64,000 nt of DNA from Thermoplasmata archaeon (lineage in GTDB: Archaea > Thermoplasmatota > Thermoplasmata > Lutacidiplasmatales > UBA184): the NCBI GenBank assembly GCA_027315455.1, contig DAHUXZ010000006.1, positions 8,952 through 72,951 of the forward strand, read 5' to 3'. Shown piece by piece: positions 11,130-60,937 of the stretch (position 1 is its first letter; every line of letters begins with the position of its first letter). The position numbers and the translations under genes were made by a program. Below the pieces are notes generated by a model that did no database searches, was not told where the DNA came from, and saw only the letters and a list, made by a program, of their open reading frames with translations.

Positions 11130-11214
11130 GCCCCCTCCGGGCGGCGCGCCCGGGGGGAACCCAAGGCGTTAAGAACCGTGCCTTGGTGAGTCGGACCGAC
11201 CTCTCGGAGGCCGT

Positions 11215-11400: not shown

Positions 11401-11417
11401 GCGCGGCCGCCCCCGAG

Positions 11418-39323: not shown

Positions 39324-39329
39324 TGCACG

Positions 39330-39690
39330 CAGATACTCTCCTCAATTTCAGAAGCGACGTAGATCTTCTCCTCGGCCCTCCACCGGCTTGGGTCAAGACC
39401 CTAAAGGGGAAGGGGCGAGCAGCTGCCACAGGGCTAATCCCCGAGATGCGTGAGCGTGGACCCGATGGGAGGTGATTGTCAGGCCTTCGACCGTAAAGAA
39501 TGAGTTCTCGGCCCCTCCCTTCATTGTGGATTCGAATCGAGCGGTGGTTCGTGAGGATTCGCCTGACCTCCAATGAAAGCGGACCGAGGCTCGCAACCCG
39601 GCGTGGGCCTTAGCTCGCGTTCCACCTCCGGCGCAGGATTCACCCTTAGGTTCCTATCCAGGGCGGACCGGTCTGGAGACCCGGTCGAAT
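39330..39690 (+). ncRNA. candidate structured non-coding RNA (possibly SRP/7S RNA-like)
   Basis: ~370 bp with no credible ORF and lower GC. Contains GGGGAAGGGGCGAGCAGCUGCC, which resembles the SRP RNA helix-8 GGAA-tetraloop/AGCAGC region. Confidence 0.2.
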
Positions 39691-39700
39691 GCATGCTAGG

Positions 39701-43700: not shown

Positions 43701-43709
43701 GGCGGGGGC

Positions 43710-44366: not shown

Positions 44367-45328
44367 GCGCCCCCGCCGACGACGTACGTGAGGGCGAGGG
44401 ATCCGAAGGCGAAGACGACGGCCAGAGTCGTCAGGTCCGCGACGCGGAAGAGTCGCCACTTGGCGACCCCGGCCTCGAGCCGGCTGACGAGCACGTGTGC
44501 CCCGAGGAGCTTGATCACGACGATCCCAACGGCGAGCGAAACGAGGGCAAGGGTCCACGACGTGCTGATGCCCCACGGCGCGGCGAGGGCGATCAAGAGC
44601 CCGATCATGATCGCAAGCTTGAACCCCCGACCCCACTCGAGGAGGGCGAGGTCGCGGCCCGAGTACTCCAGCACCATCGCTTCGTGCACCATGGTGAGCT
44701 CGAGGTGGGTAGCCGAGTTGTCGATAGGGAGCCGGCCGGTCTCCACGAGCAACAACAGCACATAGGCGACGATGGCCAGCAGCAGCGGTGGGCTGGCGTA
44801 CGCGATCCCGAGAGAGACGCCCCGGGCCGCGATGGCCCCGGCCTGCGTCGAGCCGGCAGGGCTGCCGAAGGCGAAGATGACTAGGAGGAACACTGGCTCG
44901 GCGAGAGCTCCCATCCACATTTCTCGGGTCGATCCCATGCCGCCGAAGGTGCTCCCGGCGTCCGTGGCCGCGAGAGCAGTGATGAACCGGGAGAGCGCGA
45001 GGAGCCCGACCAGCACGATCAGATCGCCAAAGGTCCCAAGCGGCGACGGCAGGACGAACCAGGGGATCAGGGGAACGGTGGCGAGGAGCGCCGCGAAGGA
45101 GATCGCCGGCGCGTAACGGGTGACCCACGAGGCGGATTTCGAGTACACCGCATCCTTGCCGATCAGTTTCCAGAGATCCCGATACGGCTGCAGGAGAGGC
45201 GGACCGACGCGCCCCTGGGTACGGGCCTTGACCCGGCCAAGCACCGCGAGGAGGAGCGGTGAGAGACCAAGGACGAGGAGGTACTCCCCGACGAACGCGA
45301 CCAGTTGGGCGGGCACCGACGCGGTCAC
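44363..45328 (-). CDS. NuoH/HyfC-HycD-like membrane subunit
   Basis: 8-TM NuoH-family pattern (GRVKARTQGRVGPPLLQPYRDLWKL). Confidence 0.75.
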   Translation of the reverse strand: MTASVPAQLVAFVGEYLLVLGLSPLLLAVLGRVKARTQGRVGPPLLQPYRDLWKLIGKDAVYSKSASWVTRYAPAISFAALLATVPLIPWFVLPSPLGTFGDLIVLVGLLALSRFITALAATDAGSTFGGMGSTREMWMGALAEPVFLLVIFAFGSPAGSTQAGAIAARGVSLGIAYASPPLLLAIVAYVLLLLVETGRLPIDNSATHLELTMVHEAMVLEYSGRDLALLEWGRGFKLAIMIGLLIALAAPWGISTSWTLALVSLAVGIVVIKLLGAHVLVSRLEAGVAKWRLFRVADLTTLAVVFAFGSLALTYVVGGGA

Positions 45329-47391
45329 GGTGCGGGTCCCCCGACGGCGCGAACGAGCAGCAGGAGCCCGACGAGGGTGACGAAGATGTACGCCAGGTAC
45401 GCGTGGATGCGGCCGGACTGGAGCCGGCTCATCCTACGGGCGAGCCCGAAGATCCCGGACGCGACGGGAGGGAACACCCACGCCCGGATCGGCTCGGCAA
45501 TCTCCACGGTGTACCGTCTCACCCGGGCGAGGACGATCCATGGCGGTCGCAGGGCCGGCGCGCTATCGGAACGCTCTATCGGCCGGTAGAACTCTTCAAA
45601 GATGCGCACCACGGGCTGGGCGTATCCGGTGGCGGTATACTCCATCCTGGGGGTGGGCGCATCGAGACCGCAGTCCCACATCGGTCCTACGACGGTGGCG
45701 GGAGCCCCCCGGATCCGCCAGACGGCCCACGCGACCAGGAGCCCCGCGCCCAGAAGGAGCGCGACAGCTCCGGGGGCAAGCGGGAGAGAGCCCCCGGAGC
45801 CGTTGGGCAGGTTGGACAGCACCGAGAGGGAGACCCCCGAGCCGACGGCGGCTCCCGTCAACTCCCGCAGGGGCCGAGTGGCGAGATCGAGCGCGAGGAC
45901 CGGCGCGACGCCTAGGGCGAGGCAGAACGCGGCGAGGATCCCCATCCCCCCCACCAGGGAGGAGGGAGGCGAACCCGCGAGCTCGGCCTGCTGGGACCGG
46001 GGCCTCGCCAGGAAGGCGATCCCGAACGCCTTGACGAAGCAATAAGCGGCTAGCCCGCTGGTGAGCGCGAGCACCGCGGCCAGGATCGAGAGCGTCATCT
46101 CCGCGGTGACGGAGCCCGTGGAGAATGCGGCGAAGAAGCTCTGGAAGAGGAGCCACTCGCTGACGAAGCCATTGAACGGCGGCAGAGCAGAGATCGCCAT
46201 CGCGCCGACGAAGAAGCCCAGCGCGACGCCCGGCATCCGCCGGATGAGGCCGCCCATCCGCTCGAGGTCGCGCGTCCCGGTCTCCCCGACTGCGGCACCG
46301 GCGCCGAGGAAGAGGAGCGACTTGAACAGTGCGTGGTTCCAGGTGTGCAGGAGCGCCGCCGCGAGAGCGAGTGCTGCGAGAGCCGGGTAGCCGAGGTTCT
46401 GGAACAGGAGCCCCGCGCCCACGCCGAGGAGGATGATGCCGATGTTCTCGATGGAGTGAAACGCGAGGAGCCGTTTCAGATTGTGTTGGACGATGGCGTA
46501 GAGCACCCCAGCCAGCGCCGAGACCCCGCCTAGGGCGAGGATCGTGTACGCCCACCAGCTGGGCCCCCCTCCTAGCAGGCCGAGGACGACGCGGAGGAGA
46601 CCGAAGATTCCCAGCTTGATCATCACGCCGGACATCAGTGCCGAGACGTTGCTTGGCGCGGCGGGGTGGGCGTCCGGCAGCCAAGAATGGAAGGGTACCA
46701 TGGCGGCCTTCGTGCCGAACCCTACGAGGGCCGCCAGGAACACGGCGTCGCGAACTCCGGGCGGGAGCCCCCCGGCGCCCGCAGCAATCCCCTCCCAGGT
46801 GGTCGACCCGGTCGCCGTCGCCAGCAGCAGGAACGAGACGAGGATCGCCCCCGTGGCCGCGTGGCTCATCACGAGGTAGACGAGGCCCGCCTCGCGGCTC
46901 TCCGCGTCCTCGTGGTCGTGAATGACGAGGAAGTAGGAAACAAGGGTCATCGCCTCCCACGCGACCAGGAAGAGGAAGATGGTCCCCGCGGTGCATACCA
47001 GCACCATCGTCAGGACGAAGAGGCCGCATCCTCCGGCGAGGAACCCACGGCGTTGAGGAACGTACCGCTCGGCGTACCCGACCGAAGCCAGCAATATCGC
47101 GGATCCGCTGACGGATACGACCAAGAGGAAGAACGCCGAGAGCGGATCCTCCTGAATCCCCAGGGCGAGCACCGGCGATGCCGGCACCGTCCCCGGCAAC
47201 CCTAGGGACGACGCGGGCAGCGTCCCTCCGAGCAGGACCAGGACCGATTGGACCGTGGTGATGGCGCAGGACAAGGCGCCCAGCAGGAACGACGCTCGGA
47301 CCTCCACCGGCCGACGGCTGGCGAACCCCAGCACGGTCGCGGCTGAGAGTCCGGCGAGAGAGACGAGCAGGAGCAGTTCGCGAAGATTCAT
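45325..47391 (-). CDS. NuoL/HyfB-HycC-like antiporter subunit
   Basis: 688-aa Mrp-antiporter-like subunit with GFGTKAAMVPFHSWLPDAH motif. Confidence 0.8.
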   Translation of the reverse strand: MNLRELLLLVSLAGLSAATVLGFASRRPVEVRASFLLGALSCAITTVQSVLVLLGGTLPASSLGLPGTVPASPVLALGIQEDPLSAFFLLVVSVSGSAILLASVGYAERYVPQRRGFLAGGCGLFVLTMVLVCTAGTIFLFLVAWEAMTLVSYFLVIHDHEDAESREAGLVYLVMSHAATGAILVSFLLLATATGSTTWEGIAAGAGGLPPGVRDAVFLAALVGFGTKAAMVPFHSWLPDAHPAAPSNVSALMSGVMIKLGIFGLLRVVLGLLGGGPSWWAYTILALGGVSALAGVLYAIVQHNLKRLLAFHSIENIGIILLGVGAGLLFQNLGYPALAALALAAALLHTWNHALFKSLLFLGAGAAVGETGTRDLERMGGLIRRMPGVALGFFVGAMAISALPPFNGFVSEWLLFQSFFAAFSTGSVTAEMTLSILAAVLALTSGLAAYCFVKAFGIAFLARPRSQQAELAGSPPSSLVGGMGILAAFCLALGVAPVLALDLATRPLRELTGAAVGSGVSLSVLSNLPNGSGGSLPLAPGAVALLLGAGLLVAWAVWRIRGAPATVVGPMWDCGLDAPTPRMEYTATGYAQPVVRIFEEFYRPIERSDSAPALRPPWIVLARVRRYTVEIAEPIRAWVFPPVASGIFGLARRMSRLQSGRIHAYLAYIFVTLVGLLLLVRAVGGPAP

Positions 47392-47575
47392 GGACCGGGG
47401 GTTCGCGCGGTCCCGTCAGGGAACGACCGACGGGGGGTCCGCGCCGGCGCAGTGCAACGGGACCATACGATGATGGAGGAGCCGGGCCAGGTCATCCCGA
47501 GGCGGTTGGGATAGTCTAAGACGGTCTGGACCGACTCCGATACGGTAATTACCCCTCCGGCGCCCTGTCTCACGC

Positions 47576-48712
47576 ATGGGCCCCACTCCGGAAGTCGAGC
47601 CGGCGTCGTCCTCCCCGCGGCGGCGTAGCCCGGCCGAGTTCCGCCGGCCCGGGGGGCCCTCCCGGCCGCCTCCGAGGCAGACCCCGAGGCATCTTCACCG
47701 ATCCGGGCCTCATACTCTCGCGGTCAGCCTCCCGAAATCTTGGATCGATGGGCACTCTCTCACCCGGGGGTCCGTGGTCTGGCTCCACTCGAGGGACGAC
47801 GGAAGACTGGTAGTCGCCCCGGCTAGCCCCGAGGGGGCGGGGCCGGCCGGGGATCGGGTGTTGACGATCGGTTCAAACCACTTTGGCGACCCCCAGGTCC
47901 TCGCTCGGACGGTCTTCGGCGGGTATGTGGTCGGGTATGACCGGATCGAACTCATCGACGCCGATGGATTCGACCGGGACCGGCGACAGGAGCTGGAGCG
48001 CACGGCCCACGCCTTTGTGGGGCTGCAGGTGGTGTTCCACGACACCCATCGTGTGACTTTGCAGAGCTTCCTGGACGCCCGTCGGCACACTGTCCCGAAG
48101 GTCTTGACCCGGGCGGGTCTGGTAGTGGAGGAGATGGCCCAGCTCCTCGCGGCGGCGGTCCGGGGTTCGTCCAAGGTGCCGATCAAGGAACTCGCGGCGA
48201 TGGAAGCGGAGTCCGACCGGCTGTATGCCCTGGCGCTGCGACAGCTCATGCTCGCGCAGGGCGACCCCGCGCTGGCTCGCCTATTGGATGTGCGAGAGCC
48301 TCGAGACCTTCTCGGGGGTCGGATCGTCGGCAAGATCTACGAAGAGATCGCGGACCTTCTCTGCAGAGCTGCGCCGGAGCTTCGGGCCGGCCTGGAAGGG
48401 CGGGAGCTGCCGGGTGCACTCCGGGCGGACCTGGTGGGCCATGTGGAGGCGCTCCGGACGATGGTGCAAGACTCCTCCCGCGCCCTCCTGAAAGAGGACA
48501 GCAATCTCGCCCACCGGGTTCTGCGCCATCGGGAGGACGGCCTCGAGGCGCTGCACCGAACCGAGCATCTCTTGGCGCGGGCCCGACTCCCCCGACGGCA
48601 AACCGCGTCGCTGGCAATCTTCGCGTGGGGGCTTGGGACCTCCCGTCGACTCTGCGGGACCATTGCCGAGGTCGCGCTCAACGAATCGATCCAATCGACG
48701 GCCACCGGGTAG
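47576..48712 (+). CDS. PhoU-family regulator with N-terminal AbrB/SpoVT-like domain
   Basis: TLAVSLPKSWIDGHSLTRGSVVWL swapped-hairpin domain followed by two PhoU-like repeats. ~45-aa Arg/Pro-rich N-terminal extension of doubtful reality. Confidence 0.65.
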   Translation: MGPTPEVEPASSSPRRRSPAEFRRPGGPSRPPPRQTPRHLHRSGPHTLAVSLPKSWIDGHSLTRGSVVWLHSRDDGRLVVAPASPEGAGPAGDRVLTIGSNHFGDPQVLARTVFGGYVVGYDRIELIDADGFDRDRRQELERTAHAFVGLQVVFHDTHRVTLQSFLDARRHTVPKVLTRAGLVVEEMAQLLAAAVRGSSKVPIKELAAMEAESDRLYALALRQLMLAQGDPALARLLDVREPRDLLGGRIVGKIYEEIADLLCRAAPELRAGLEGRELPGALRADLVGHVEALRTMVQDSSRALLKEDSNLAHRVLRHREDGLEALHRTEHLLARARLPRRQTASLAIFAWGLGTSRRLCGTIAEVALNESIQSTATG

Positions 48713-48902
48713 CACCGCACCCCCCGGGAAGGCCTCGAAAGATCACCGGGATCCGGACGAACTCCGTGATGGGGGCCATAACGCACGCATTCAGCTCGAC
48801 CTTTTCTGAAACGCAGTTGAGTCGCGAGGAATGAGCGGCCGCATGGTCGGATTCCCTGCGGCTTCAGGATTCTAGGGTCGCGGGCCGGGCTGGACATTGA
48901 AT

Positions 48903-50108
48903 CTAGTGGCGCGGCCACGAAAGAAGGTTGACCCTATCGGGGCCTGAGCCAGATCGGCATCTTGGCTCTGCGACGGTGGTCTTTGCGCACGGTGTCGCGG
49001 AACCGCTTCCCTCGCGCCTGTCGTTCTTCGTTCCGATAGCGGACCGCCGAGGCGAGCACTTCGCCCACGGCCTCAGGGGTCGTGTGCGTCTCCCCGGCCA
49101 TCGCCAGCTTCTGCAGATCCCCGGCGTGGCACTCCACCGGGTTCAGGTGACTCGCATGGGTGGGCGTTGAGAACAGCCGTACCTTGTTCGCCTTCGCCCA
49201 CTGACGGATCGCTGCCGTCCAGTGGTTGCTCGCCCCGTCCCAGATCAGGTTCACCCACTGGTCGGTGGGATACTCCGCCCGCACGTCCTTCAGATACTCC
49301 AGCCAGTTCGCCGCGTGCTTCGTTCGGTAGACCCGACCGAACAGCCGCTGGTGGAACACGTTCAGCGTGAGGAAGTAGTAGACCGTCCCGAACTTCCGCT
49401 CATACTCGGCGGGAATGCGCGCCGGGATCTTCTGAGGGAACCATCCCTCGCCTCCGTGGGGGATCAGTTGGATCGGTCCGATCTCATCCGCCGAGAGGAC
49501 CACCGGCGGATTGTGCCGCTTCCGAGTCAGCTGGTCGATCTTCCGCTTCTTCTCCTCGAAGAGGGGGTCTGGGGAGGTCTTCCAGGTGCGGATCGACTGG
49601 TGGGAGACCTCATCCTCGTGGAGGATCACGCGGAGCCACTCCTCGCTGATCGACTCTACGATGCCGCGTTTCACGGCCTGCTCCCGAAGGCGGGAGAGCG
49701 ACCACTGGGCGTAGGGTAGTTCGAGGTCGCGTGGTCGGCTGAGGGCGAGGTCGACCAGCGCCTTGCGCTGGTCGTCGGTGAACTTCGGGGGTCGGCCGGG
49801 CCCCCACTTCGGCTGGAGCATGGCCATCCCATGCTCGTTGAAGGCGCGGATCACCCCACGAATGTAGTCCTCGCTCGCCAGGGCGATGATGGTAATCCGA
49901 GGAGGGGTGTTCCCCTGGTAGCTCGCGAGCACGATCTGGGCGCGCTTGAACTCGATGGCGTTCTGCCCGTGGCGGACGATGTGACGGAGCTTCTGTCCTT
50001 CCTCGAGCGTTAGGTCACGGACCCGCAGGACCATGCCACCGGGATAGCGCAACCCCGGAAAGTACCATCGGTCCAAAGGTCAGGCAACTTTACCGGCCGC
50101 GCCACTAG
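48903..50108 (-). mobile_element. IS630 (Tc1/mariner)-family insertion sequence, ~1.2 kb
   Basis: Terminal inverted repeats CTAGTGGCGCGGCC (48903-48916) and its reverse complement GGCCGCGCCACTAG (50095-50108), with a partial match extending ~15 bp inward. Single DDE transposase inside. GC ~57%. Confidence 0.75.
48934..50076 (-). CDS. IS630-family transposase
   Basis: N-terminal HTH (RVRDLTLEEGQKL, KRAQIVL) and DDE_3 domain (...WDGASNHWTAA...). Non-ATG start in the ORF track; the true start may be the internal Met. Confidence 0.8.
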   Translation of the reverse strand: MDRWYFPGLRYPGGMVLRVRDLTLEEGQKLRHIVRHGQNAIEFKRAQIVLASYQGNTPPRITIIALASEDYIRGVIRAFNEHGMAMLQPKWGPGRPPKFTDDQRKALVDLALSRPRDLELPYAQWSLSRLREQAVKRGIVESISEEWLRVILHEDEVSHQSIRTWKTSPDPLFEEKKRKIDQLTRKRHNPPVVLSADEIGPIQLIPHGGEGWFPQKIPARIPAEYERKFGTVYYFLTLNVFHQRLFGRVYRTKHAANWLEYLKDVRAEYPTDQWVNLIWDGASNHWTAAIRQWAKANKVRLFSTPTHASHLNPVECHAGDLQKLAMAGETHTTPEAVGEVLASAVRYRNEERQARGKRFRDTVRKDHRRRAKMPIWLRPR

Positions 50109-51157
50109 GTCCGGGGAGCGCCGCACTTCGGGCAGACGGTCGCCGTGGTGTCGATGAGCGTCCCGCAGTAGCGGCAGTTGGTCTTGACCGTCTCCTGAAG
50201 GACGATCTGCTGGACCGGCGGCTGCGCCACCTGCCCGAGGCCGAGCGGCGGCGGGGACGGGAAGTTCGCGCGGTCGTAGGCGATCGTGCCCGGCGCCCCG
50301 TGACGGGGCAGCGTCGCGCCCCGTCGCCGGCGTCCCACGGCCCAGATCGCGACCACGACGACCAGGACGAGGACGAGCGCGCCGACGACGATCGTGGCGA
50401 CCTCGGCGACGTCGAGCCCCGCGGGAGGGGGCGGTGGCGGCGCCGCCGCCGGGGTGAGCGGGTAGCTCGTGCTGGTCGCCGCGAGCGTGTCGGTCCAGGT
50501 GAACCCGTCCCCCGTGCCATCGCGGTCGGTCTCGGTGTAGAGGTAGCCCACGATGTAGCCCGAGCCGGGGTCGAAGTACGCCTTCCAGGTGTACGTCGCG
50601 GTGAAGACGCCGTAGACGTCGTTGCGCTGGTAGGTGCCGTTGCCCTCGGCGAAGAGCGTCCGCACGTAGCCGGTGGGGCTCGAGGCCAGCGGGTAGGAGA
50701 CGTTCGTCCCCACCACCACGAGCTCGCTGTTGAGGACGTAGAAGCTCGCGCCGGGCCGGAGCGCGGAATCCATGTAGAACCAGACGTAGGGATCGACGTA
50801 CCCCGTCTGGTTGTCGGTCCCCTGGACGTAGTGGTACGTCGTCGGGGAGAACGTGAACGTCCCCTTAACGGGGACGATCTCGCTCTGGCCCGCGTTGCTG
50901 ACCCAATGGGTCACGCTCTGGTACGTGGTGTTCGCGGACCCGTTCGCGAGGAGGGAGGTGTCGTGGAGGCTGCCGTTGATGAAGGAGTGCTCGGTGTAGC
51001 CGGTGTAGTTGCCGACGCCGCCGTCGAGGACGATCGTCTCGGTGTAGGCCAGCTGGTCGCCGGCGTTTACCGCGCGCGGGAGCGGGCGGGCGACCGCCGC
51101 GGGAAGGAGGGCGAGGAAAAAGATCGCGGCGACGGCCAGCAGGCGTACCGCTCTCAT
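50105..51157 (-). CDS. predicted surface glycoprotein with signal peptide, C-terminal TM anchor and cytoplasmic zinc ribbon
   Basis: MRAVRLLAVAAIFFLALLPAA signal, many N-x-S/T sequons, TM (VATIVVGALVLVLVVVVAIW), then CRYCG...CPKCG. Start ATG overlaps the upstream stop. Confidence 0.5.
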   Translation of the reverse strand: MRAVRLLAVAAIFFLALLPAAVARPLPRAVNAGDQLAYTETIVLDGGVGNYTGYTEHSFINGSLHDTSLLANGSANTTYQSVTHWVSNAGQSEIVPVKGTFTFSPTTYHYVQGTDNQTGYVDPYVWFYMDSALRPGASFYVLNSELVVVGTNVSYPLASSPTGYVRTLFAEGNGTYQRNDVYGVFTATYTWKAYFDPGSGYIVGYLYTETDRDGTGDGFTWTDTLAATSTSYPLTPAAAPPPPPPAGLDVAEVATIVVGALVLVLVVVVAIWAVGRRRRGATLPRHGAPGTIAYDRANFPSPPPLGLGQVAQPPVQQIVLQETVKTNCRYCGTLIDTTATVCPKCGAPRT

Positions 51158-52680
51158 CCGGTGAACCCTCCGAACGCGTGGACGTGGCCCGGATGCGCGC
51201 CGGAGAACGCGCCATACGTGGAGAAGTAGTGCCCGTGGGCGACGAGGAGCGGGACCAGATACAGCCGGGGGCCGGGGGAGGGCGTCGGCGGGCCGGCCCC
51301 CGCCGGTCGGGCCGCGGCGGTGGCATCGTGCTCGTTGACGGAGGCGACCCGGATGCCGTGGAGGAGGCGGACGGCCAGGCAGAGCAGCTCGGGAGGGGGG
51401 ATCGGGCCGGTACGTCGGCCGAGGATGTCGTAGGCCCGCTCGAGGAGGGTGAGGGTCTCGTTCGCCTCGAGGACCGGGATCGCCGCGAGGATCGAGGCCG
51501 CCACGAGGGGATACTGGAGGTAGGTGCCGACCCCCCGCGCGATGATCGCGAGCTTCGTCCCGACCCCGGTGATGGGGAGGTCGGAGACGGTCAGGTACGC
51601 CGCCGAGAGCTCGACGTCCTCGCTCGGCTGATAGCCCCACATTCCGAACTGGGAGCGGGCCGCGACGAACTTCGCCGAGAGGTCGGCGAAGGGCGCGTTG
51701 ACGACCGACAGCAGCCCGGCGGCCTCGTACGAGCGGGTCAGCGCGAGGAAGGCGGGGAGGTTGGCGACGGCGAACGTCCCATCCTGGCGCTGTCCCGCGA
51801 GCAGGGTCGCCGCGACCGCGAGCGAGGATTCGGGGGGGACGCCGGTCGACGCGACGGACCGGTTCAGCTCGGCGAGAAGCGGAACGGTCTCGGAAAGGGG
51901 CCGAGCGAGCGTCGCGAGGATCTCCGCGCTGAGCAGGCGGTTCTCGGTGTTGGGGGTGAATGCCGCGACCTGTTCGTACGCCGAAAGGAACGTCGCCGCG
52001 GCCGTCGCGCCGTCGCTTCCCGACTTCGCGAGGCCGATCCCGACGGCCCACAGGTAGCTGCGGTCCACGCCGGGCAGGCGGGGCAGGAGCTGGCCGAAGA
52101 CGGCGCCGCCCGCGTCGGCGGTGCGTTCGAGCTCGGCGTCGACCCGCTGGCTATCGGCCCAGTAGGCCGAGAACTCCATGGCGGAGACACGGTAGGCCCG
52201 GACCTCGAGGTCGCGCAGCGCCATCGCCCCGAGCCCGGTGAGGGCCACGAACCCCCCGGCCGCCGGGACGAGGTTATCGAGGAGCGCCTTCTGCTGGACG
52301 AGGTCCGCGAACTGCGCTTCCCGGTCGCGCAGCTCGGCCTGCGCCGCCCGGAGCGCGGAGGCGTCGCCCGCGGCCTGGCCCTCCTCGGCGGCCCGTTTCG
52401 CCGCCCCTTCGAAACGAAAGAGGATCGAGTGCGTGTGGCGCTCCTCGGACCGGACCCGGGCCTGGAGCTGGGCGTACTCCGCCCCCTCGCGCTGGATCGT
52501 CTCCTGGGCGGAGCCCATGCCGCCCACGCGCGCCACGAGGGCCGCCCGATCCGCCGGGGAGAGCACCGCCACCAGCCGCGCGGCGGACAATTCCGTCAGG
52601 CCGGCCGGCGCGAGCTCCCCGGAGAGGGTGCGCGATCGCAGCCCGCTGAGGTACTGGAGGACCTCGGTGCAGGTCGTCAC
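51154..52680 (-). CDS. hypothetical alpha-helical/coiled-coil protein
   Basis: 508-aa ORF in operon arrangement (start overlaps the upstream stop) with protein-like composition. N-terminal coiled coil; no recognised motifs. Confidence 0.45.
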   Translation of the reverse strand: MTTCTEVLQYLSGLRSRTLSGELAPAGLTELSAARLVAVLSPADRAALVARVGGMGSAQETIQREGAEYAQLQARVRSEERHTHSILFRFEGAAKRAAEEGQAAGDASALRAAQAELRDREAQFADLVQQKALLDNLVPAAGGFVALTGLGAMALRDLEVRAYRVSAMEFSAYWADSQRVDAELERTADAGGAVFGQLLPRLPGVDRSYLWAVGIGLAKSGSDGATAAATFLSAYEQVAAFTPNTENRLLSAEILATLARPLSETVPLLAELNRSVASTGVPPESSLAVAATLLAGQRQDGTFAVANLPAFLALTRSYEAAGLLSVVNAPFADLSAKFVAARSQFGMWGYQPSEDVELSAAYLTVSDLPITGVGTKLAIIARGVGTYLQYPLVAASILAAIPVLEANETLTLLERAYDILGRRTGPIPPPELLCLAVRLLHGIRVASVNEHDATAAARPAGAGPPTPSPGPRLYLVPLLVAHGHYFSTYGAFSGAHPGHVHAFGGFTG

Positions 52681-52681
52681 G

Positions 52682-53884
52682 CTATCGGTCGACCAACGGG
52701 AAAATCGTATTTAGGGGTTCCTCCGAGAGGCGGTTCCGTATCTCGAGGGCCAGGCCCTCGGGGGTCTCCACCGGACGCGCGAACGGGTCGTCGCGCAGTG
52801 CCTCGCGGAGGACCGTCGCGAAGTGCTCTCGGCGGTCCCCGAGCGCAAGGAAGCGGCGGCGCCGCTCGGACTCGATCTGCTCGAAGGCGAACATGAACTC
52901 GTAGAGGGAACGGTACACCTGGTCCTCGAGCTTCTCCCGGACCTCCCTACGCTCCACGACGACCTCGTCGATCCCTTCGAGGTCGACGAAGTACGCCGCG
53001 CCGTCCGGGGCGAGGACCGCATCCTTGTCGAGCCAGACGTCGTGGAAGTCGAGGCCGCGATACCGGCCGGGCACCGCGTCGGGAGCGAGCGTGCGGGCGA
53101 ACAGGGTCAGCATCGCGACGACGCTCGCCACGAAGCGCAATTCGAAGGCCAGGGCGCGCGCGTTCGAGCCGATCCCGAACCGATCGAAGACCCATCGGAT
53201 GCTGTCGCCGACGGTCTGGCGGCCGTGGAAGTAGATGCGGACGTTCGACGGGACGAGCCGCAGCTCCTGGACGAACGGGCCGCGGTAGCGGCGGTACCAG
53301 TAGATCGACCGCAGGTCCTCCTCGAGCGACGGGGGAAAGCGGGCGATCTTGACCAGCGGGGCGAGCCGGAAGCCGGCGAGGCTGGTGAGGTCGGCCCGCT
53401 CGGAGACCGCGAGCGCCGTTCGGGCGTGCGCGAGCCCCTGCCCGCCGTACGGCGAGCCGCGCAGCCAGAGCTCCCCGGTGATCAGGCGCTCGGGTGCCGA
53501 ACCCGAAGCGGGCCCGAGGCGGTCCCGGACGGCCGGCGGACCGATCAGCGGACGGACCACGTCACGGTCGAGCCGCTCGGCGGCGAACGGGAGCACCTCC
53601 GAGCCGACGCCCTTGATGGAGAGGTAGAACGCCATTCCGTCCAGCGTCGCCGCCGGCTCGGGGAGGATCGCTCCCCGGTTGTCGTCCTCGATGAACTTTA
53701 ACCGGCCCGCGGACGGGCGGTCCATCAACCCCGCGAGGGCGGGGGGAAGGAAGAGCCGGTCGAGGTCCGAAAGGGGGTGTCCCGCGAACTGGCGGTTGGT
53801 GATCGTCTCGGCCGGGTACGCGTCCAGCCAGAGCGGGGTCCCGGGGAGTCGGTGGTCGACCGGCACTTCGCCCCGCGCGCTCAC
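52682..53884 (-). CDS. hypothetical protein, possibly kinase-like fold
   Basis: 400 aa. FHDVWLDKDAVLAPDGAAYFVDLEGI loosely resembles the catalytic-loop / Mg-binding (IDxE) region of APH/Kdo-kinase-like proteins. Inference only. Confidence 0.45.
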   Translation of the reverse strand: MSARGEVPVDHRLPGTPLWLDAYPAETITNRQFAGHPLSDLDRLFLPPALAGLMDRPSAGRLKFIEDDNRGAILPEPAATLDGMAFYLSIKGVGSEVLPFAAERLDRDVVRPLIGPPAVRDRLGPASGSAPERLITGELWLRGSPYGGQGLAHARTALAVSERADLTSLAGFRLAPLVKIARFPPSLEEDLRSIYWYRRYRGPFVQELRLVPSNVRIYFHGRQTVGDSIRWVFDRFGIGSNARALAFELRFVASVVAMLTLFARTLAPDAVPGRYRGLDFHDVWLDKDAVLAPDGAAYFVDLEGIDEVVVERREVREKLEDQVYRSLYEFMFAFEQIESERRRRFLALGDRREHFATVLREALRDDPFARPVETPEGLALEIRNRLSEEPLNTIFPLVDR

Positions 53885-54053
53885 CCGCCCCCCGCCGCGG
53901 CCCCCGACGCGATCGACGGCCCGTTCGACGCGATACCCGCAGCCCCCGGACTCGCGGGCATCGCACCCTCGGCGGGCCCTCGAGCCGGAGGAGCCCCAAA
54001 AGGGTTCCCCGGCAGGGCCCCGCCGCCGTCAGGTCCCCACGTCGCCCCGTGAG

Positions 54054-57000
54054 TCACCCGTCGCCGCGGCCCGAGGGGAACGCCTCGTGGAGGCGCGCGA
54101 AGGTCGTCGGGTCGACGAGGTCGGGGTTCACGGGGACCAGTATCCGGGCCCCCTGGTGCCGGGCCATGTCGGCGAGCCCCTCCAGGAAGGCCGCGGTCCG
54201 CTCGGCGGTGTGGATCCGCACCAAGTACTCCACTCCCTCGAGGTACGCGGCCTCGACCCCGCGCTCCCCGAACGCCCGGCGGAACAGCTCGGTGAGGGCG
54301 GCGAGGTCCGTCGGCGGGAACGACCCCTCCCGCCGGACGTTCGAAAGCCAGACGACCTCGACCGCGCGCGGTCCGAGGCTCGCCCGCAGGCGGTCGGGGA
54401 AGTCGCGGCTCAGGCAGAGCCCCCGACGCGGCAGCTCGGTCGCGGCCAGGAACTCCGACCAGGACGTCCCGGGGGAGCGTTCGGGCCAGACCTCGACCCC
54501 GGTTCTCGGTGGAAGGACGGCTGGCGCCGCGGGCGCGGGGGAGCGCACGGCGGCGGGGTCCGCGGGGGTCAGCGCCGGCAGGACCGGCGCGGGGGGGGCC
54601 GGAGCGGTGCCCGGCCCGATACCGGTGGGCTCGGCCGGGGCGGGGGGGACCCCTACGGGCGGGGGGAGGACGGGAACCGGCATCGGCGCCGTGCGGGGTG
54701 CCGCTCGCGGCGCGACGGGATCCTCCGCGGCCGCCTCCCCCTGCGGGGGTGCGGGGGACGGCGCGGCGGCGGGCGCCGGCCCTTGGGTGCCGGACGGGGC
54801 GCAGACGACGACGCGAGGACGGAGGGGGCGGGGTGGGGAGGGACCGCCGAAGTGCTCCACGAGAAGGGCGGCGACCTCGGGCCCGAACCCGGGGATAGGT
54901 GCCAGCCGCTCGAACGGCGCGTGGGCGATCTCCTCGTAGGAGCCTAGCCCCGCCTCCCAGGCCATCGCGAGCTTCGTCGGTCCGAGAACGGGACGGCGCA
55001 GCTCCGTGTCGAACGCCGTGACGGCGTCGCGGATCGCGGACTCGCGCGCCCTCAGGCTCTCATCGAGATAGTCGGTCCCTTCCCAGGCCGCCGGAGCGGG
55101 GGGCCGGGGGCGGACGCGGGGGCGCCGGTCGCGGCGGGGCCGGACCTTGTGCCGGGCCGGCGCGGCCGGTGCCCCGACGAGGACGCACCTCCATCGATCC
55201 CCACGCCGCGTCCGCCCCTCCACGCCCCATCCCTCGGGAACGGGCTCGCCGGACGGGACGAGCCGCACGGGGACGCCTCCGAACGCCGGGCCGAGCGACG
55301 GGAGGAGGCGCTCGAGCTCGGCCGCGAGGGGCCCCGAGATTTGGACGGCGATCTCCGACACCAGCGACGGCTGGGGAAGCCGACCGAGCTGGCGATGGAC
55401 CTCGCGGAAGAGCCGGAACCCGTCCGGCGTCAACGGAGGGGGGGCCCCGCCGGTGGCGTCCCCCGACGCCCCGGGCGGCCTAAGGAGCAGCTCGCCGAGC
55501 CGCCAGGGCACGGCGACGACCCCCTCGGGAAGCGACTCGGTAAGGTCGACCATCGTCGCGGCGATCGGGTACGGCAGCCCGTCGAGGACGACCTCGAGCC
55601 GTCCGTCCTTGAGCCCGTCCTGGATCTGGGTCCCGGTCAGCTGCTCGAGGAGACGGGCGATCCGGCCAGCGACCGGGCCGTAGCGGGCGCGGATCCGCTC
55701 CAGGTTCGGGCTCGCCTCGACCCGGCGGGCATCCCACGGTCGGGCGGGCGACGCGATCTGGACGGAGGCCGCCCCCGCGATGCGGGCCAGGATCTCCGGC
55801 CGATCCCGCACGAGGCCGGCCGTCTCCTCATCGTTCAGGTAGACCACGATGGGAGGCAGATCGGCGGACGGGGCGACCTTGAGCTCGCGGCGATATCGGG
55901 CGACGGCCGTCCGCAGCTCCCGCCATACGCCGTACGCCCGCTCCGCGTTCGCATCGAGGAGCGCCTCCTGGACCGGGGCGAACGTCCGCTCGAAGACGCT
56001 CTCGTGATCGCCCCGCAGCGCGCGGTGGATCGCCTCCATCGTGAACGGAAGGATCGGGGCGGAAAGCTCGACCCAGCGCGGCAGGACGTGACCGAGGACG
56101 TTGAGCGCCGCGGCCTTCCCCGAGCTCGGCCCGGCCGACGCAAGGCGCGGCCCCGCGAGCGGCAGGTATCCGGCCCGCAGGTCCTCCTCCATGAACTGCG
56201 CGAGGCGCTCGTGCGCCGCGGCGAGCTCGCCCCGGTCGTAGAGGCGCAGGACCTCGAGCCGCATCCGCTCGAACAGGGAGAGGAACGCCCGGTCCTCCTC
56301 GGTCAGGCCCTCGAGCGGGCGGGTCACGACCGCCGCGTCCGGGTCGAAGCGCTCGGCGGCGAACCGCTCGAGGATCTCCCGGGCCGTCTCCCAGCTCTTG
56401 CGCAGGCGGCGATCCTCCTGCTCGCGGCGGTTGACGAGCGTGAGCTCCCCGTTGCGGGGCGCGCGCTCGGTGAGGAGGAGCGCGGCCCGCAGCGCATCGG
56501 CCGACTCCCCGAGGCCCGGCCGGGCCGGGACCTCCGAGCTCGGAAGGGTCGGGATCGTGGCGACCTTCAGCTCTTTCGGGTCGGCGTCGACCGCCTCCAT
56601 CGCGAGGAGGTGGTGGACCAGGGCGGGCGCCCGGCGTCGCTCGGGAAGGTAGAGCCAGGCCGAGTCGGCCGGGGCGACGGGGGCCGCGGCCGCCCAGGCC
56701 ACGACGGCGGCGTGGACCGGCGGAAGCAGATGCCGCCGGGAGACGAGGCGTACCCCGCCGCACCCGCAGCGATCGGGGGCGTCGGACGGGGCGAGCTCCC
56801 CGCACGACTGGCATTCGGAGAGCGCCGGGGCGTCCGGCTCGGAGGTGATCTCCCCGGCGCTCACGGGCCAAGGGACCACCTCCGACGCGCCGACCTCCGG
56901 TGCGTCGGGAAGGAGGCGCTGGTAGAGCGCCGTTCGCTGGGGGGAAAGGCGGTTCGGCGCGAGGCACCACGCCCGCCCGACGTCCCAGTGGAGGGCCGAG

Positions 57001-58097
57001 CCGCAGGTGACGCAGTGCGGAATGCCCCGTCGGACCCGGAGCTGGGCGAACAGGAGCCCGCTCTCCGTGACGTCCCGGAGGACGAACGCCTCGGCGTCCT
57101 CCAGCGTGAGCCGCTGGTACTTGTGCGCGACGTCCTCGGTCAGGCGCCCGCTCAGGTCGGCGACGGACCAGCCGGGGATCCCGAGCGCCGCGGCCGCGTG
57201 GTAGTCGGCCGCCCCGTGGGCCGGAACGAGCGCGATGACCCCGGTGCCGGAGTCGCCGACCTCCGCCGACGCGAGCACGGTCCCGGCGGGCGGGGGGAGG
57301 TTCGCGAGAACGGGGGACTCCATGGCCAGCGGATGGACGTAGGCCGTCCCCGCCCACCGGCGGCCGGGCGCCTCTTCGAGGACCTCGATCTCGGCGCCGT
57401 CGAGCCACTGGATGACCCGGTCGATCGCGGACCGTAGGATGACGATCCGTTCCTCGACCCCGCGCCGGCGGTAACGGGCCGTGACGTAGGGCATCGTCGG
57501 GTGGACGAGGATCGCCGTCGTCCCGAGGAGCTTCCAGAGCGAGTCGGTCCAGACGAGGAGGCTCGTCCGGGGCGGCGCGCCGGCGATCGGAAAGCGGACG
57601 AGGTACGCCGGTCCCGGCGCCTCGGCATAGACGATCCCCTCAGGGCTCCGGGGGAGGCGGCAGGACGGGCAGGTCCGAAGCGGCGTCGACCGGCTCACCA
57701 GGAGCCGACGGGCCGCGAGACGATCCACGACCTCCTGAAGTCGCTGCGGCCCGACCGCTTCGGTGAGGGGGCGCACACGGCCCCCCTCGGTCGCGATCCC
57801 CGCGCGACGCAGGAGGGGCAGCACACCCTCCCCCGCCGACCCCTGGTCCACCATCCAGAGCGTCCCGCGCGGTCGCGCCCCCGCCTGCGCGAGGTAGCGG
57901 GCCCCGGCATCGGCGGCCACGGCACGGGCGAGGACCTGGGCGGCGGGGTCAGCGGCCGCTACGGTCCCGGGGAACTGGAGGACCCGGGGTTCCCCCCCTT
58001 CCCCGTCACGGGCGAATAGATTGGGTCGGGAGGCCCAGAACAGCCAGGCCTCGGATTCGATCGCCGCGGGGTCGTAGCGTGGGGAGAGAAGGTGCAT
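54054..58097 (-). CDS. giant fusion protein: degenerate class-Ia aminoacyl-tRNA synthetase (IleRS/ValRS-like pseudo-synthetase) + HhH motif + uncharacterised C-terminal domain
   Basis: Class Ia landmarks are retained in degenerate form: the HIGH region reads DPAAQVL, WTTTPWT reads WTDSLWK, the editing-domain motif reads GTGVIALVPAHGAADY, HCWRC reads HCVTCGS, and no KMSKS is present. After ~aa 1000: HhH (LAPIPGFGPEVAALLVEHFG), a Pro/Ala-rich linker, and a ~150-aa domain (GLCLSRDFP...VVWLS...LEGVEYLV...ILVPVNPDL). Confidence 0.6.
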   Translation of the reverse strand: MHLLSPRYDPAAIESEAWLFWASRPNLFARDGEGGEPRVLQFPGTVAAADPAAQVLARAVAADAGARYLAQAGARPRGTLWMVDQGSAGEGVLPLLRRAGIATEGGRVRPLTEAVGPQRLQEVVDRLAARRLLVSRSTPLRTCPSCRLPRSPEGIVYAEAPGPAYLVRFPIAGAPPRTSLLVWTDSLWKLLGTTAILVHPTMPYVTARYRRRGVEERIVILRSAIDRVIQWLDGAEIEVLEEAPGRRWAGTAYVHPLAMESPVLANLPPPAGTVLASAEVGDSGTGVIALVPAHGAADYHAAAALGIPGWSVADLSGRLTEDVAHKYQRLTLEDAEAFVLRDVTESGLLFAQLRVRRGIPHCVTCGSALHWDVGRAWCLAPNRLSPQRTALYQRLLPDAPEVGASEVVPWPVSAGEITSEPDAPALSECQSCGELAPSDAPDRCGCGGVRLVSRRHLLPPVHAAVVAWAAAAPVAPADSAWLYLPERRRAPALVHHLLAMEAVDADPKELKVATIPTLPSSEVPARPGLGESADALRAALLLTERAPRNGELTLVNRREQEDRRLRKSWETAREILERFAAERFDPDAAVVTRPLEGLTEEDRAFLSLFERMRLEVLRLYDRGELAAAHERLAQFMEEDLRAGYLPLAGPRLASAGPSSGKAAALNVLGHVLPRWVELSAPILPFTMEAIHRALRGDHESVFERTFAPVQEALLDANAERAYGVWRELRTAVARYRRELKVAPSADLPPIVVYLNDEETAGLVRDRPEILARIAGAASVQIASPARPWDARRVEASPNLERIRARYGPVAGRIARLLEQLTGTQIQDGLKDGRLEVVLDGLPYPIAATMVDLTESLPEGVVAVPWRLGELLLRPPGASGDATGGAPPPLTPDGFRLFREVHRQLGRLPQPSLVSEIAVQISGPLAAELERLLPSLGPAFGGVPVRLVPSGEPVPEGWGVEGRTRRGDRWRCVLVGAPAAPARHKVRPRRDRRPRVRPRPPAPAAWEGTDYLDESLRARESAIRDAVTAFDTELRRPVLGPTKLAMAWEAGLGSYEEIAHAPFERLAPIPGFGPEVAALLVEHFGGPSPPRPLRPRVVVCAPSGTQGPAPAAAPSPAPPQGEAAAEDPVAPRAAPRTAPMPVPVLPPPVGVPPAPAEPTGIGPGTAPAPPAPVLPALTPADPAAVRSPAPAAPAVLPPRTGVEVWPERSPGTSWSEFLAATELPRRGLCLSRDFPDRLRASLGPRAVEVVWLSNVRREGSFPPTDLAALTELFRRAFGERGVEAAYLEGVEYLVRIHTAERTAAFLEGLADMARHQGARILVPVNPDLVDPTTFARLHEAFPSGRGDG

Positions 58098-58203
58098 GCG
58101 CTCCCACGTCCGAAACGGGTCGCGGTCGAGAGATTCGCCGCCGGCACGATAAACCCTTGGAGCACGCCGCCGCCCGTCGGGGAGCCCGGGATCGCCGGTG
58201 ATC

Positions 58204-58911
58204 TCAGACGGGCGGAACGAGGCGCGCCCGGGGCCGGGACCGGCGGGTCCGGTTCAGGTCCTCTTCGAGCCGGTTGAGCTCGATGAGGACCTCGGAGGCG
58301 GTCCCCGGCGCCGTCTCGAGTCCCTCGGGCTCGACCGGGGGGGCGACGGAGAGGACGGGGGCGGGGGCATGCACCCGGGCGAGGGGGCCCGCCCGCCCCG
58401 TCAGATTCGTAGCGGCCGGGAAGCCCCGCGGGCGGGCCGGCGACGGTTCGTCCGCCTTTCCCGGGTCCCCCGGCGCACTCCCGCCGTCCTCGGGGGACAT
58501 CCGTCCCGCCCGGGACGGGGCCCTTCGGGTCGCCTCGCGAGATCGCTTTCGGCCGGCCCCGTCCTCCTCGTTCTCTTCGACCGCCATGGAGACTCCCGCC
58601 CCGACCGCGGCGACCGCGCCCAGGGCGTAGAACAGCAACCACACTTCGAGCGGCCCCGCCCCCACCTTCGGGCTGGTCACATGGAGGACCGTACCCACCA
58701 GGGCACAGGTCGCCGTGATGAACCAGAGGGGGCCGGCGTCCTCGAACCGCTCGCGCAGGGAGCGCGGAGCCGCGAGGATCCTTGGGTAGGTCCCGTCCGG
58801 CCCGGCTTCCCGGGGGCCCTCCTCGGGTGCCGCATCCGTCGGGGGCGGGGACGGGACCGACGACGGGGGTGCACGGGGGGGTCGGCCCGGTCGATGGATC
58901 GCCCGTGGCAT
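58204..58911 (-). CDS. hypothetical membrane protein (low confidence)
   Basis: Two predicted TM helices (LWFITATCALVGTVLHV, VWLLFYALGAVAAVGAGVSMAV) within an otherwise Pro/Ala/Arg-rich ORF. Could be a GC-driven artefact. Confidence 0.25.
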   Translation of the reverse strand: MPRAIHRPGRPPRAPPSSVPSPPPTDAAPEEGPREAGPDGTYPRILAAPRSLRERFEDAGPLWFITATCALVGTVLHVTSPKVGAGPLEVWLLFYALGAVAAVGAGVSMAVEENEEDGAGRKRSREATRRAPSRAGRMSPEDGGSAPGDPGKADEPSPARPRGFPAATNLTGRAGPLARVHAPAPVLSVAPPVEPEGLETAPGTASEVLIELNRLEEDLNRTRRSRPRARLVPPV

Positions 58912-58922
58912 CGCCAGCAGGG

Positions 58923-59555
58923 TCACGGGCAGCTCCGGAGGGTGAGGCAGGGATTGAGCGAGACGTGGATGGCGAGCACCCTCGGCACCGCTCGGCTGCC
59001 CAGGTCGAGGAACAGGTCCAAGTGGACGATCTGCGCGGCCGGGGAGCGCCCGGACCCGCTCGAAAAGTAGCCGTGGAAGATGGTCCATCCGCCCGTCGTC
59101 TCGACACCGACCTCGATGTCGAAGGAGAACGGAGCGCCCAGGCGCGACGGCTGAAGGTAGGAGATCACCAGCTCTTCGGCATACGTTCCCGCCACCAGGG
59201 TGGACGGGGCCGCCGAGCGGTAGCCGTCCGTGCACGGGCCGACCCGGCAGGCCGCGACGCGGACCGTTGCGCCGCTCAGACCGAGCGTCCCCGCGGTCTG
59301 CCGACCCGCGGTAGGGAACGTGGACGTCGCTTTGGTCAGGAGGACGATCCCGAGGCCGATCTGGGAGATCGGCGGAGGGCTCGCCCCTTGGGCCATCGCG
59401 AGAGCGGACGGGGAGGCGGCGAGCTGGGTGACGGACGTCGACGCATGGGCGGGCGTCGGAAGAAGAAGTATCAGGACCAGGAACGAGAACGCCGCTGCGA
59501 GGAGACGGGAGGCGGGGCCGGCCCGGTGCCGCGGATGCGCTGGGTGACGACTCAT
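58923..59555 (-). CDS. secreted protein, paralogue of 59700-60326, ending in a Cys-x5-Cys-Pro motif
   Basis: Hydrophobic signal-like N-terminus (LLAAAFSFLVLILLLPTPAHA), Ser/Thr/Gly/Ala-rich body, C-terminal NPCLTLRSCP. Confidence 0.45.
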   Translation of the reverse strand: MSRHPAHPRHRAGPASRLLAAAFSFLVLILLLPTPAHASTSVTQLAASPSALAMAQGASPPPISQIGLGIVLLTKATSTFPTAGRQTAGTLGLSGATVRVAACRVGPCTDGYRSAAPSTLVAGTYAEELVISYLQPSRLGAPFSFDIEVGVETTGGWTIFHGYFSSGSGRSPAAQIVHLDLFLDLGSRAVPRVLAIHVSLNPCLTLRSCP

Positions 59556-59699
59556 GAGGGGTTCACCGCCGGGTTCTTGCGCGGAGGGTGGCCGGTAGGG
59601 AGGGTCGGTGCGGCGAGGGCGGGGAAGGGGTGGGCGAGGAAGGGGTTCGCGTCGCCGGCATCGGATGTCGGCGGGTCCGTGGGTCCGGCGGGACGGGAC

Positions 59700-60326
59700 C
59701 TACGGGCAGGCCGTCGCGCTCGCGCACTGGTTGAAGATCACCGACACCGAGTTGATCACCGGGGCCGAGCTCGTCCCGAGGTCGATGAAGACGAACACGG
59801 GGACGGCCGAGGTCGTCGCGACGCCGGTCGCGCCGGTCGCGAGGTAGGCGAGCGCCGTCACCGTCGTGGTCGTTACACCGACGGTGATCGAGATCGTGAA
59901 CGCCATGTCGAAGCCGACGCTCGTCCCGGTACCCGCGGGCTGGGTGACGGTCATGGCGATCTGCTCGCCATAGTTACCGGTCGTCTCCGTCGCCGGGCTG
60001 GCCGAGATGAAGTTCCCGGCCGGGCACGGGGTCGTCGCGCAGGCGGCGAGCGCGGCCGGCGTACCCGAGAGGCCCACGGCGCCGCTCGTCTCGCTGCCGC
60101 CGGCGGTGGCCGTCGCCATTCCCGTCGAGAGCACCACCAGTTGCTCCGAAGTGATCGAAGCGATACCGGAGAATCCCCCCGGGGTCGGGCTCTGGGTCAC
60201 GTTCGTCGCCTGCTGGGGGCTCAGGGTCGTGACGGTGGTCGCGGCGAGGGCGTAGCCCCCGATCATCGCGATCATCGCGGCGGCCGTCACGGCGTAGACG
60301 AGGCGTTGCTTGCGCTTTGTCGCCAT
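59700..60326 (-). CDS. secreted protein with KRK-hydrophobic-GG signal peptide, Thr-rich body and C-terminal Cys-x5-Cys-Pro
   Basis: MATKRKQRLVYAVTAAAMIAMIGGYALAATTV then a Thr/Ser/Ala/Gly-rich sequence ending NQCASATACP. Start at internal ATG with GGGGGAG upstream. Confidence 0.5.
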   Translation of the reverse strand: MATKRKQRLVYAVTAAAMIAMIGGYALAATTVTTLSPQQATNVTQSPTPGGFSGIASITSEQLVVLSTGMATATAGGSETSGAVGLSGTPAALAACATTPCPAGNFISASPATETTGNYGEQIAMTVTQPAGTGTSVGFDMAFTISITVGVTTTTVTALAYLATGATGVATTSAVPVFVFIDLGTSSAPVINSVSVIFNQCASATACP

Positions 60327-60550: not shown

Positions 60551-60937
60551 ATGGCCTGGACGCAGCAGGAAGTTCGCGAGCTCAAGGAAGGCCGCTACAT
60601 GCTCATCGATGACGAGCCCTGCAAGATCCTCAGCATCCAGACCTCGAAACCGGGAAAGCACGGCGAGGCGAAGGCCCGCATCGACGCCGTCGGCGTCTTC
60701 GACGGGTCGAAGCGGAGCGTCGTCTTCCCCGTGAAGCACAAGGTCCAGGTCCCGATGATCGGCAAGCGCCAGGCCCAGGTGCTCTCGCTCACCGACACCG
60801 AGGTCCAGCTGATGGACCTCGAGACCTACGAAACGTTCTCGCTGGCCCTGGAGGCAGAGCTCAAGGGTCAGCTTTCCCCCGGGGGAGAGGTCCAGTACAT
60901 CGATGCCATGGGGAAGCGTCGGATCAGCCGCCCGTAG
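60551..60937 (+). CDS. eif5a: translation initiation factor 5A (aIF-5A)
   Basis: Hypusine-loop region [13 protein letters not shown] and SH3-like plus OB domains. Confidence 0.9.

Follow-up and report, generated by a model that had tools for sequence, protein, structure and literature searches.

We analysed a stretch of 64,000 nucleotides (the window) from contig DAHUXZ010000006.1 of the Thermoplasmata archaeon assembly GCA_027315455.1, and in it a block of seven consecutive minus-strand genes at 50105-60326, here called A to G. The host is a Thermoplasmata metagenome-assembled genome (MAG) with a GC content of ~73%, and the block A-G is also present in GCA_027315875.1. A preliminary description, made from the letters of the window, had read the seven genes as a horizontally acquired accessory cassette beside an insertion sequence (IS). 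We propose that three of them (C, B and A) belong to a four-gene module with a distant acetyltransferase gene of the GNAT type, and we predict that protein C is a SelO-like transferase.

The genes, all on the minus strand, are A (50105-51157, 350 aa), B (51154-52680, 508 aa), C (52682-53884, 400 aa), D (54054-58097, 1347 aa), E (58204-58926, 240 aa), F (58923-59555, 210 aa), and G (59700-60326, 208 aa). The gene for eIF5A follows on the plus strand (60551-60937). The seven calls are real, and the public annotation of the source genome has identical ones. As long spurious open reading frames (ORFs) are common at such a GC content, we checked GC at third codon positions (GC3), which is 0.86-0.95 for A-G in the called frame and lower in the alternative frames. 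Numerous homologues exist for each of A, B, C, and D, and F and G are paralogues of each other (30% identity, E 5e-20). The support for gene E consists of its GC3 and a start that overlaps the stop of F.

The preliminary description is largely right at the level of single genes. Its kinase-like protein C has a protein-kinase-like fold in the predicted structure, and its two paralogous secreted proteins are F and G. It gave the first three genes overlapping start and stop codons, which is true of B and A (a 4-nt overlap); C and B are adjacent, with 1 nt between them.

The C-B-A/GNAT gene order across archaea

We scanned one genome per species of the Genome Taxonomy Database (GTDB) with our C-family alignment A1 as the query. 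Relatives of C are encoded in at least 153 species genomes from two archaeal phyla. We kept 80 loci, of which 62 were informative (at least 3.5 kb of sequence downstream of C); the loci come from soil, peat, and bog MAGs. All 62 informative loci, from Thermoplasmata and Bathyarchaeia, have C, B, and A in this order on one strand, with a convergent GNAT gene after them. The ends of the tblastn matches to A and to the GNAT protein are a median of 31 nt apart and at most 703 nt apart. The sole outlier is the window, where the distance is 12.2 kb. Its orthologue of the convergent gene lies at 37075-37860 on the plus strand and encodes an acetyltransferase of ~261 aa (Acetyltransf_1, E 1.5e-13), the fourth member of the module.

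Within the module, conservation is highest for C (47-64% identity across phyla). Identity to C is mostly 55-64% in loci labelled Thermoplasmata, with a few at ~48-49%, and 47-51% in those labelled Bathyarchaeia. The latter are peat and soil MAGs that contain the whole module (loci L068-L091). We consider it reasonably probable that C-B-A is a translationally coupled operon, forming a four-gene module with the convergent GNAT gene. The preliminary description had allowed that its genes might turn out to be universal and scattered in related archaea. They are indeed widespread, but the trio is not scattered; it is tightly linked, and linked to a fourth gene as well.

A very distant homologue of C (24% identity) occurs in a host with 40% GC (locus L011). 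The four-gene module thus appears specific to the Thermoplasmata/Bathyarchaeia branch of the C family, because the neighbours of this distant homologue are unrelated.

Several other features of these loci are recorded here as observations. A few module contigs among L068-L091 are labelled Nitrososphaerales, 'Candidatus Acidoferrum', or 'bacterium', labels that are probably binning errors. The MAG YP4.bin112 has two complete copies of the module on different contigs (L026 and L029), either a true duplication or a mixed bin. The GNAT gene adjoins a gene for a 95-aa OB-fold protein in the window (36581-36868, minus strand), L006, and L008. This protein is far more conserved than its neighbours (85-90% identity) and was assigned from Pfam tRNA_anti-codon and OB_Ssb-like matches on the L006 and L008 orthologues.

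The extra 12.2-kb segment and the seven-gene block

The closest relative is GCA_027320345.1 (loci L008 and L009), with a C protein that is 85% identical. There the stops of A and of the convergent GNAT gene overlap in one CTAG palindrome. In the DNA alignment, positions 1-4902 of L008 correspond to window positions 55034-50105 and positions 4931-12319 to window positions 37819-30030. The trio and the end of D are collinear in L008 and L009, and the GNAT gene and nine genes beyond it have the same order in the window, from 37860 down to 30487, as in L008. Because the L008 alignment skips the segment between, the window carries 12.2 kb of extra DNA (37861-50104) between A and the GNAT gene. The segment sits inside the CTAG common to the stops of both genes, and its GC content (0.64-0.67) is below that of the flanks.

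An IS lies at each end of the extra DNA. The element next to A belongs to the IS630 family, as the preliminary description had it (48903-50108, minus strand), and all of its expected parts are present. These are a transposase ORF (48934-50076) with helix-turn-helix (HTH_32, HTH_29) and DDE_3 domains, 31-nt inverted repeats (48903-48933 and 50078-50108), and a TA target duplication. The duplication lies within CTAG, and its TA is that of the TAG stop of gene A; protein A is unchanged because the duplicated TA regenerates the stop. The element next to the GNAT gene is IS5/IS1182-like (37857-39323, plus strand). Its transposase (37941-39227) contains DUF772, DDE_Tnp_1, and DDE_Tnp_1_6 domains. 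The element carries inverted repeats of 19 nt that are 95% complementary, CTAG stands at each end of it, and its insertion point is the CTAG that contains the GNAT stop codon. In their DDE transposases, terminal inverted repeats, and TA and CTAG target duplications, both elements are like other members of the IS630 and IS5 families.

Between the two ISs are 9.6 kb of cargo (39324-48902). Based on Pfam matches, it encodes a complex-I-like membrane module (39701-47391: NuoB with Fer4, a NuoC/D fusion, a NuoH-like protein, and a NuoL/Mrp-like protein) and, after it, a PhoU/AbrB-type regulator (47576-48712). The NuoD-like large subunit lacks the CxxC NiFe-ligand motifs. As a side observation, the cargo complex resembles an energy-converting hydrogenase-related complex (complex-I- or group-4-hydrogenase-like) without a NiFe site. 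The cargo has a GC content of 0.674, compared with 0.73 in the flanks, and a GC3 of 0.80-0.86, compared with 0.91-0.95. It is not found between A and the GNAT gene in L008 and L009, nor in any of the 62 informative loci. The cargo is likely a real insert.

All four junctions of the nested insertion read CTAG. We think it rather probable that a nested insertion of 12.2 kb split the GNAT gene from A in this genome alone. One point tells against this account: we looked for terminal inverted repeats of the cargo and found none. A classical composite transposon was considered and rejected. Such a transposon has two copies of one IS, whereas here the two ISs are of different families and the cargo, without inverted repeats, is bounded by CTAG on both sides. 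We also looked for a second copy of either IS within the window and found none.

The block itself matches the genome in composition. GC is 0.714 in the trio, 0.755 in D, and 0.724 in E/F/G, compared with 0.73 in the flanks, and the trio has a GC3 of 0.91-0.95. Its parts differ in their linkage. D occurs within 8 kb upstream of the trio in 6 of 47 loci, and E/F/G are never within 8 kb of the trio in related loci. The seven genes are therefore not the single unit that had been supposed. On balance, we regard 50105-60326 as native chromosome made of three independent units: C-B-A, D, and G-F-E.

D was described as a pseudo-aminoacyl-tRNA synthetase fusion, and this holds across its family. The protein has an IleRS/ValRS-like body with a CP1 domain and an anticodon-binding domain, followed by HhH, a Pro-rich linker, and DUF835. 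The matches are to Anticodon_1 (E 5e-18), DUF835 (E 7e-16), and in part to ileS/valS (positions 158-412 of the ileS model). About 70 homologues in Thermoplasmata (35-50% identity, 1250-1810 aa) have the same architecture, with HhH only in some, and none of them gave a match to the Pfam family tRNA-synt_1. The HIGH and KMSKS motifs are missing in all ten aligned family members; the three genuine IleRS aligned with them retain their own forms of both motifs (PPTANG...HH; KMSKS or KMSKH). Of the CP1 editing domain, the D family retains the motif GTGxV...HGxxD with its conserved Asp, and the Thr-rich WTTTPWT motif has degenerated to WTDxxWKLLG. Judged from these residues, a residual tRNA- or aminoacyl-binding role is conceivable. 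In L006 and L060, the genes for eIF5A and D are directly adjacent, and the order eIF5A-D...trio-GNAT is present. D is a lineage-conserved pseudo-synthetase-DUF835 unit, separate from the trio and tending to adjoin eIF5A.

The G-F-E cluster (58204-60326, minus strand) encodes the paralogous secreted proteins F and G and a small protein with two transmembrane (TM) helices, E. No homologue of E, F, or G was found in any of the 91 related loci, and within the block only these genes are lineage-specific. In L006, small genes separate D from the trio; they were compared as possible E/F/G homologues and rejected. A G/F-like tandem pair is present in three metagenome contigs (for example, L093:6001-7337 and L095:354-1689), with 54-61% identity to G; no match to D, the trio, or eIF5A was found in these contigs. 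We regard G-F-E as a small cluster of genes for secreted and membrane proteins whose distribution is patchy.

The preliminary description held that all seven genes are one horizontally acquired accessory cassette, brought beside or by IS630, that breaks the core synteny. An IS does abut the block, confident functional annotation is missing for all seven genes, and E/F/G are not at this position in relatives. Against this, the block has native GC and GC3, the trio keeps its synteny with the GNAT gene in every informative locus, the D-eIF5A adjacency recurs in relatives, and by the L008 alignment the extra DNA lies across the IS from the block. There is an IS at only one side of 50105-60326, while the interval 37857-50108 is bracketed by both ISs and by CTAG repeats. 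For the block, neither an integrase nor a second boundary was found. Searches of 30-64 kb and 36-64 kb of the window gave neither a tRNA nor an Rfam RNA, and tRNA-linked integration was rejected on that ground. We consider a seven-gene cassette extremely unlikely. The synteny is interrupted by the IS-bounded, lower-GC segment of 12.2 kb at 37861-50104, which lies outside the coordinates given for the island. An IS beside unannotated genes had been read as the mark of an island, and the IS-bounded insert is actually on the opposite side.

Proteins A, B, and GNAT

Protein A was described as a glycoprotein-type surface protein with one TM helix and a cytoplasmic zinc ribbon, and we agree. It has a signal peptide, an ectodomain of ~230 aa that is rich in N-x-S/T sequons (seven in protein A), a Pro-rich linker, one TM helix, and a cytoplasmic zinc-ribbon tail. 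The ectodomains of its orthologues are variable, with 3-14 sequons (median 7), and the ectodomain of A has no PDB or Pfam match. The zinc-ribbon Pfam matches at residues 325-348 fall just under the curated cut-offs (PF13240, 24.3 vs 25 bits; PF13248, 23.7 vs 27 bits). The CxxC...CxxC pattern is kept in 63 of 63 orthologues from both phyla, and the C-terminal consensus VQQIVxKExVKVxCRYCGxLxDST...CPxCGAPR[TS] is near-invariant in both. Apart from this ribbon, Pfam and NCBIfam scans of A, E, F, and G gave nothing.

Protein B was called a coiled-coil protein. This is correct for residues ~55-135, which form a helical hairpin in the predicted structure (pLDDT 78.6), and not for the rest. The model also has a small N-terminal domain, an alpha/alpha repeat at 150-440 that holds many invariant polar residues, and a C-terminal tail of ~65 residues. 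The tail, left unstructured by the model, contains YYSTFSG...HPxHxH...Gly-COOH. All 194 sequences examined end this HPxHxH...Gly tail with a C-terminal Gly, and even a homologue beyond the reach of tblastn retains the HPxHxH tail. We also note that the tail (window 51154-51350) includes a moderately hydrophobic stretch, FFFVPIIVAHGAYY, along with YYSTFSG and the HPxHxH cluster. Pfam and NCBIfam searches with B found no match, and a PDB profile search with the B-family alignment returned chance matches or none.

The C-terminal half of the GNAT protein is closest to the protein N-acetyltransferases YpeA, RimI, and Ard1, and the RxxGxG acetyl-CoA motif is kept. In a distant relative (L010, GCA_041481165.1, 6238-8004), an A-like ectodomain, a TM helix, and a GNAT domain make up one protein of 588 aa that has no zinc ribbon. 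The fusion gene is directly upstream of C and B homologues, with overlapping gene ends, and GNAT is within the operon. By a Rosetta-stone argument, the zinc ribbon of A may recruit GNAT to the membrane, because the A-GNAT fusion has lost the ribbon.

Predicted chemistry of protein C and the module

The C family is annotated as hypothetical wherever a source names it. It is compact, with 129 clusters at 50% identity among 1.84 billion representatives. The predicted fold of C is kinase-like and most similar to SelO, then to the adenylating NIS synthetases; the top three matches all act on the alpha-phosphate of ATP, by AMP transfer or by adenylation. SelO/YdiU (Pfam UPF0061, PF02696; PDB 6eac, 6k20) is a protein adenylyltransferase. 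We compared its motifs in the E. coli sequence with those of C by eye, taking the residue roles from a review (PMC8097203).

Six motifs are collinear between the two proteins. The SelO motif DGR (85) corresponds to DNR (68) in C; KGAG (107), which contains the beta3 Lys (K113 in P. syringae numbering), to KGVG (91); TPY (112) to SPY (144); RVAPSHLR (170) to RLVPSNVR (209); HGVMNTDN (240) to HDVWLDKD (281); and LDYG (255) to VDLE (300). In SelO, the Arg pair R176/R183 binds the gamma-phosphate of the flipped ATP, Asn253 is a metal ligand, and Asp262 is the DFG-like Asp (PMC8097203). K91 and R209/R216 of C match K113 and R176/R183, with an identical spacing of seven residues between the Arg residues; the equivalence is one of motif order, not of superposed structures. 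D301 is at the place of the DFG Asp. D288 replaces Asn253 and is seven residues past a conserved His, as in SelO; from this position, it could serve as the metal ligand instead of Asn. Among 37 C-family members (to ~20% identity), R70, G92, G147, P176, P212, and D301 are invariant, and K91, Q206, R209, S213, R216, and D288 are at least 90% conserved.

We predict from the modelled fold and these motifs that C is a divergent SelO-like transferase of AMP or another nucleoside monophosphate (NMP), and we classify it, on the same grounds, as a new family of the kinase-like superfamily that would work like SelO, not as a member of the SelO family. SelO-type AMPylases are stand-alone redox-stress enzymes of bacteria and mitochondria, and archaeal reports are rare (PMC3281104). 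The NIS synthetases of the IucA/IucC family (AcsD, SbnC) have ~600 aa in three domains, whereas C has 400 aa. C has no IucA_IucC or FhuF Pfam match, there are no siderophore genes nearby, and its motif set fits SelO and not NIS. PADLOC and PHROGs scans gave no match for A, B, C, E, F, or G; a known anti-phage defence system was rejected, as there was no PADLOC match.

The preliminary description suggested an envelope-associated signalling or modification module, which is compatible with our findings for the trio C-B-A. Our preferred explanation is that C-B-A-GNAT is a membrane-tethered protein-modification module based on AMP transfer. C would be catalytically competent, bind ATP in the flipped orientation, and transfer AMP or another NMP (alpha-phosphate chemistry) rather than phosphate. 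Its site of action would be the cytoplasmic side of the membrane, within a complex that A organises. The glycosylated ectodomain of A would face outward, and its zinc-ribbon tail would recruit the RimI-like GNAT. A may serve as the anchor that keeps GNAT, and probably B and C too, on the inner side of the membrane. The most likely substrate would be the C-terminal tail of B, nucleotidylated by C and/or acylated by GNAT. A candidate acceptor on this tail is a Tyr, Ser, or Thr hydroxyl or the carboxylate of the terminal Gly. We hold this explanation with moderate confidence, in one judgement that also covers the native block, the operon, and the nested insertion.

A number of points weigh against this explanation. 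C has no Pfam or NCBIfam match, and Pfam searches at E <= 10 gave none for 21 family members. A PDB sequence-profile search with the C-family alignment did not find SelO, giving chance matches or none, and hhalign of the broad C profile against the single E. coli SelO sequence gave a probability of 2.6%. The link to SelO comes from the predicted structure and the motif matching. No conserved acidic residue was found in helix 151-163 across the broad C family that would correspond to the conserved alpha-C Glu (SelO E136). The catalytic loop has K-D in C and D-N in SelO. C ends in ...FPLVDR without a Cys, and the C-terminal Cys/Sec motif of SelO is missing. The complex of A, B, C, and GNAT is inferred from gene order and one fusion. 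B is a candidate substrate, and its tail could equally be a metal-binding or membrane-associating element rather than a substrate.

The unusual catalytic loop and the fact that the SelO-type signatures are below detection by hidden Markov models (HMMs) would also suit a catalytically dead pseudoenzyme or scaffold, with the module as a structural envelope complex without nucleotide chemistry. We find this highly unlikely, as the residues expected to bind nucleotide and metal (R70, K91, R209, R216, D288, and D301) are 90-100% conserved to 20% identity, and C is more conserved across phyla than any other gene of the module. The kinase-like fold could also be that of a conventional Ser/Thr/Tyr protein kinase that transfers the gamma-phosphate. 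A, B, and C would then be a receptor-kinase-like transmembrane signalling unit with the ectodomain of A as the sensor. The nearest folds to C are the alpha-phosphate enzymes named above, and we consider a conventional kinase unlikely.

A further comparison is with microcin maturation. In siderophore microcins, the SelO-like MchC/MceJ, complexed with the acyltransferase MchD/MceI, modifies the C-terminus of a peptide (PMC3281104). In microcins H47 and E492, a SelO-superfamily enzyme is paired genetically and physically with an acyl-CoA-type acyltransferase, and the target is the Ser/Gly-rich C-terminal tail of a ribosomally made protein from the same cluster (PMC3281104). The module described here likewise has an obligatory acyltransferase partner, the convergent GNAT that in L010 lies within the operon. 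There are also differences. The partner is a RimI/YpeA-like GNAT, whereas MchD/MceI is an HlyC-family acyltransferase. The candidate substrate B is a folded protein of 508 aa, unlike a microcin precursor. The module is found in an archaeal host and, unlike MchCD/MceIJ, has a further obligatory component, a zinc-ribbon membrane glycoprotein. Neither the window nor the L003-L010 gene tables contain siderophore, glycosyltransferase, or ABC-export genes.

On this model, C could be a carboxylate-adenylating ligase (of the MceJ/MchC or NIS-synthetase type) that activates the C-terminal Gly of B, after which its GNAT-fold partner would hand the acyl group over to an acceptor. The cluster lacks acceptor, glycosyltransferase, siderophore, and export genes, however, and its GNAT is of the RimI/YpeA type and not the HlyC type. 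B is a folded protein of some 500 aa and not a short precursor peptide, and a terminal Gly in a Gly-rich tail is less informative than it appears. We view a ligase as doubtful; if it were one, the system would parallel ubiquitin-like or microcin C-terminal activation, with an enzyme of the kinase fold.

Returning to the AMP-transfer module, a more specific form of it is a new archaeal tail-modification system. C would adenylylate the tail of B, at the Gly carboxylate or at the YYSTFSG hydroxyls, and the GNAT recruited by A would complete or reverse the modification. We offer this form tentatively and think it improbable as it stands. If true, soil Thermoplasmata and Bathyarchaeia would share an envelope-coupled, kinase-fold counterpart of the C-terminal activation of microcins or ubiquitin-like proteins.

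This unannotated module is invariant across at least 153 species of uncultivated archaea, and the two phyla to which they belong abound in soils and peat. If it is an AMP-transfer system, it would provide a defined candidate substrate, enzyme, and partners that are open to direct in vitro testing, and it would extend non-canonical kinase-fold chemistry to the biology of the archaeal envelope.

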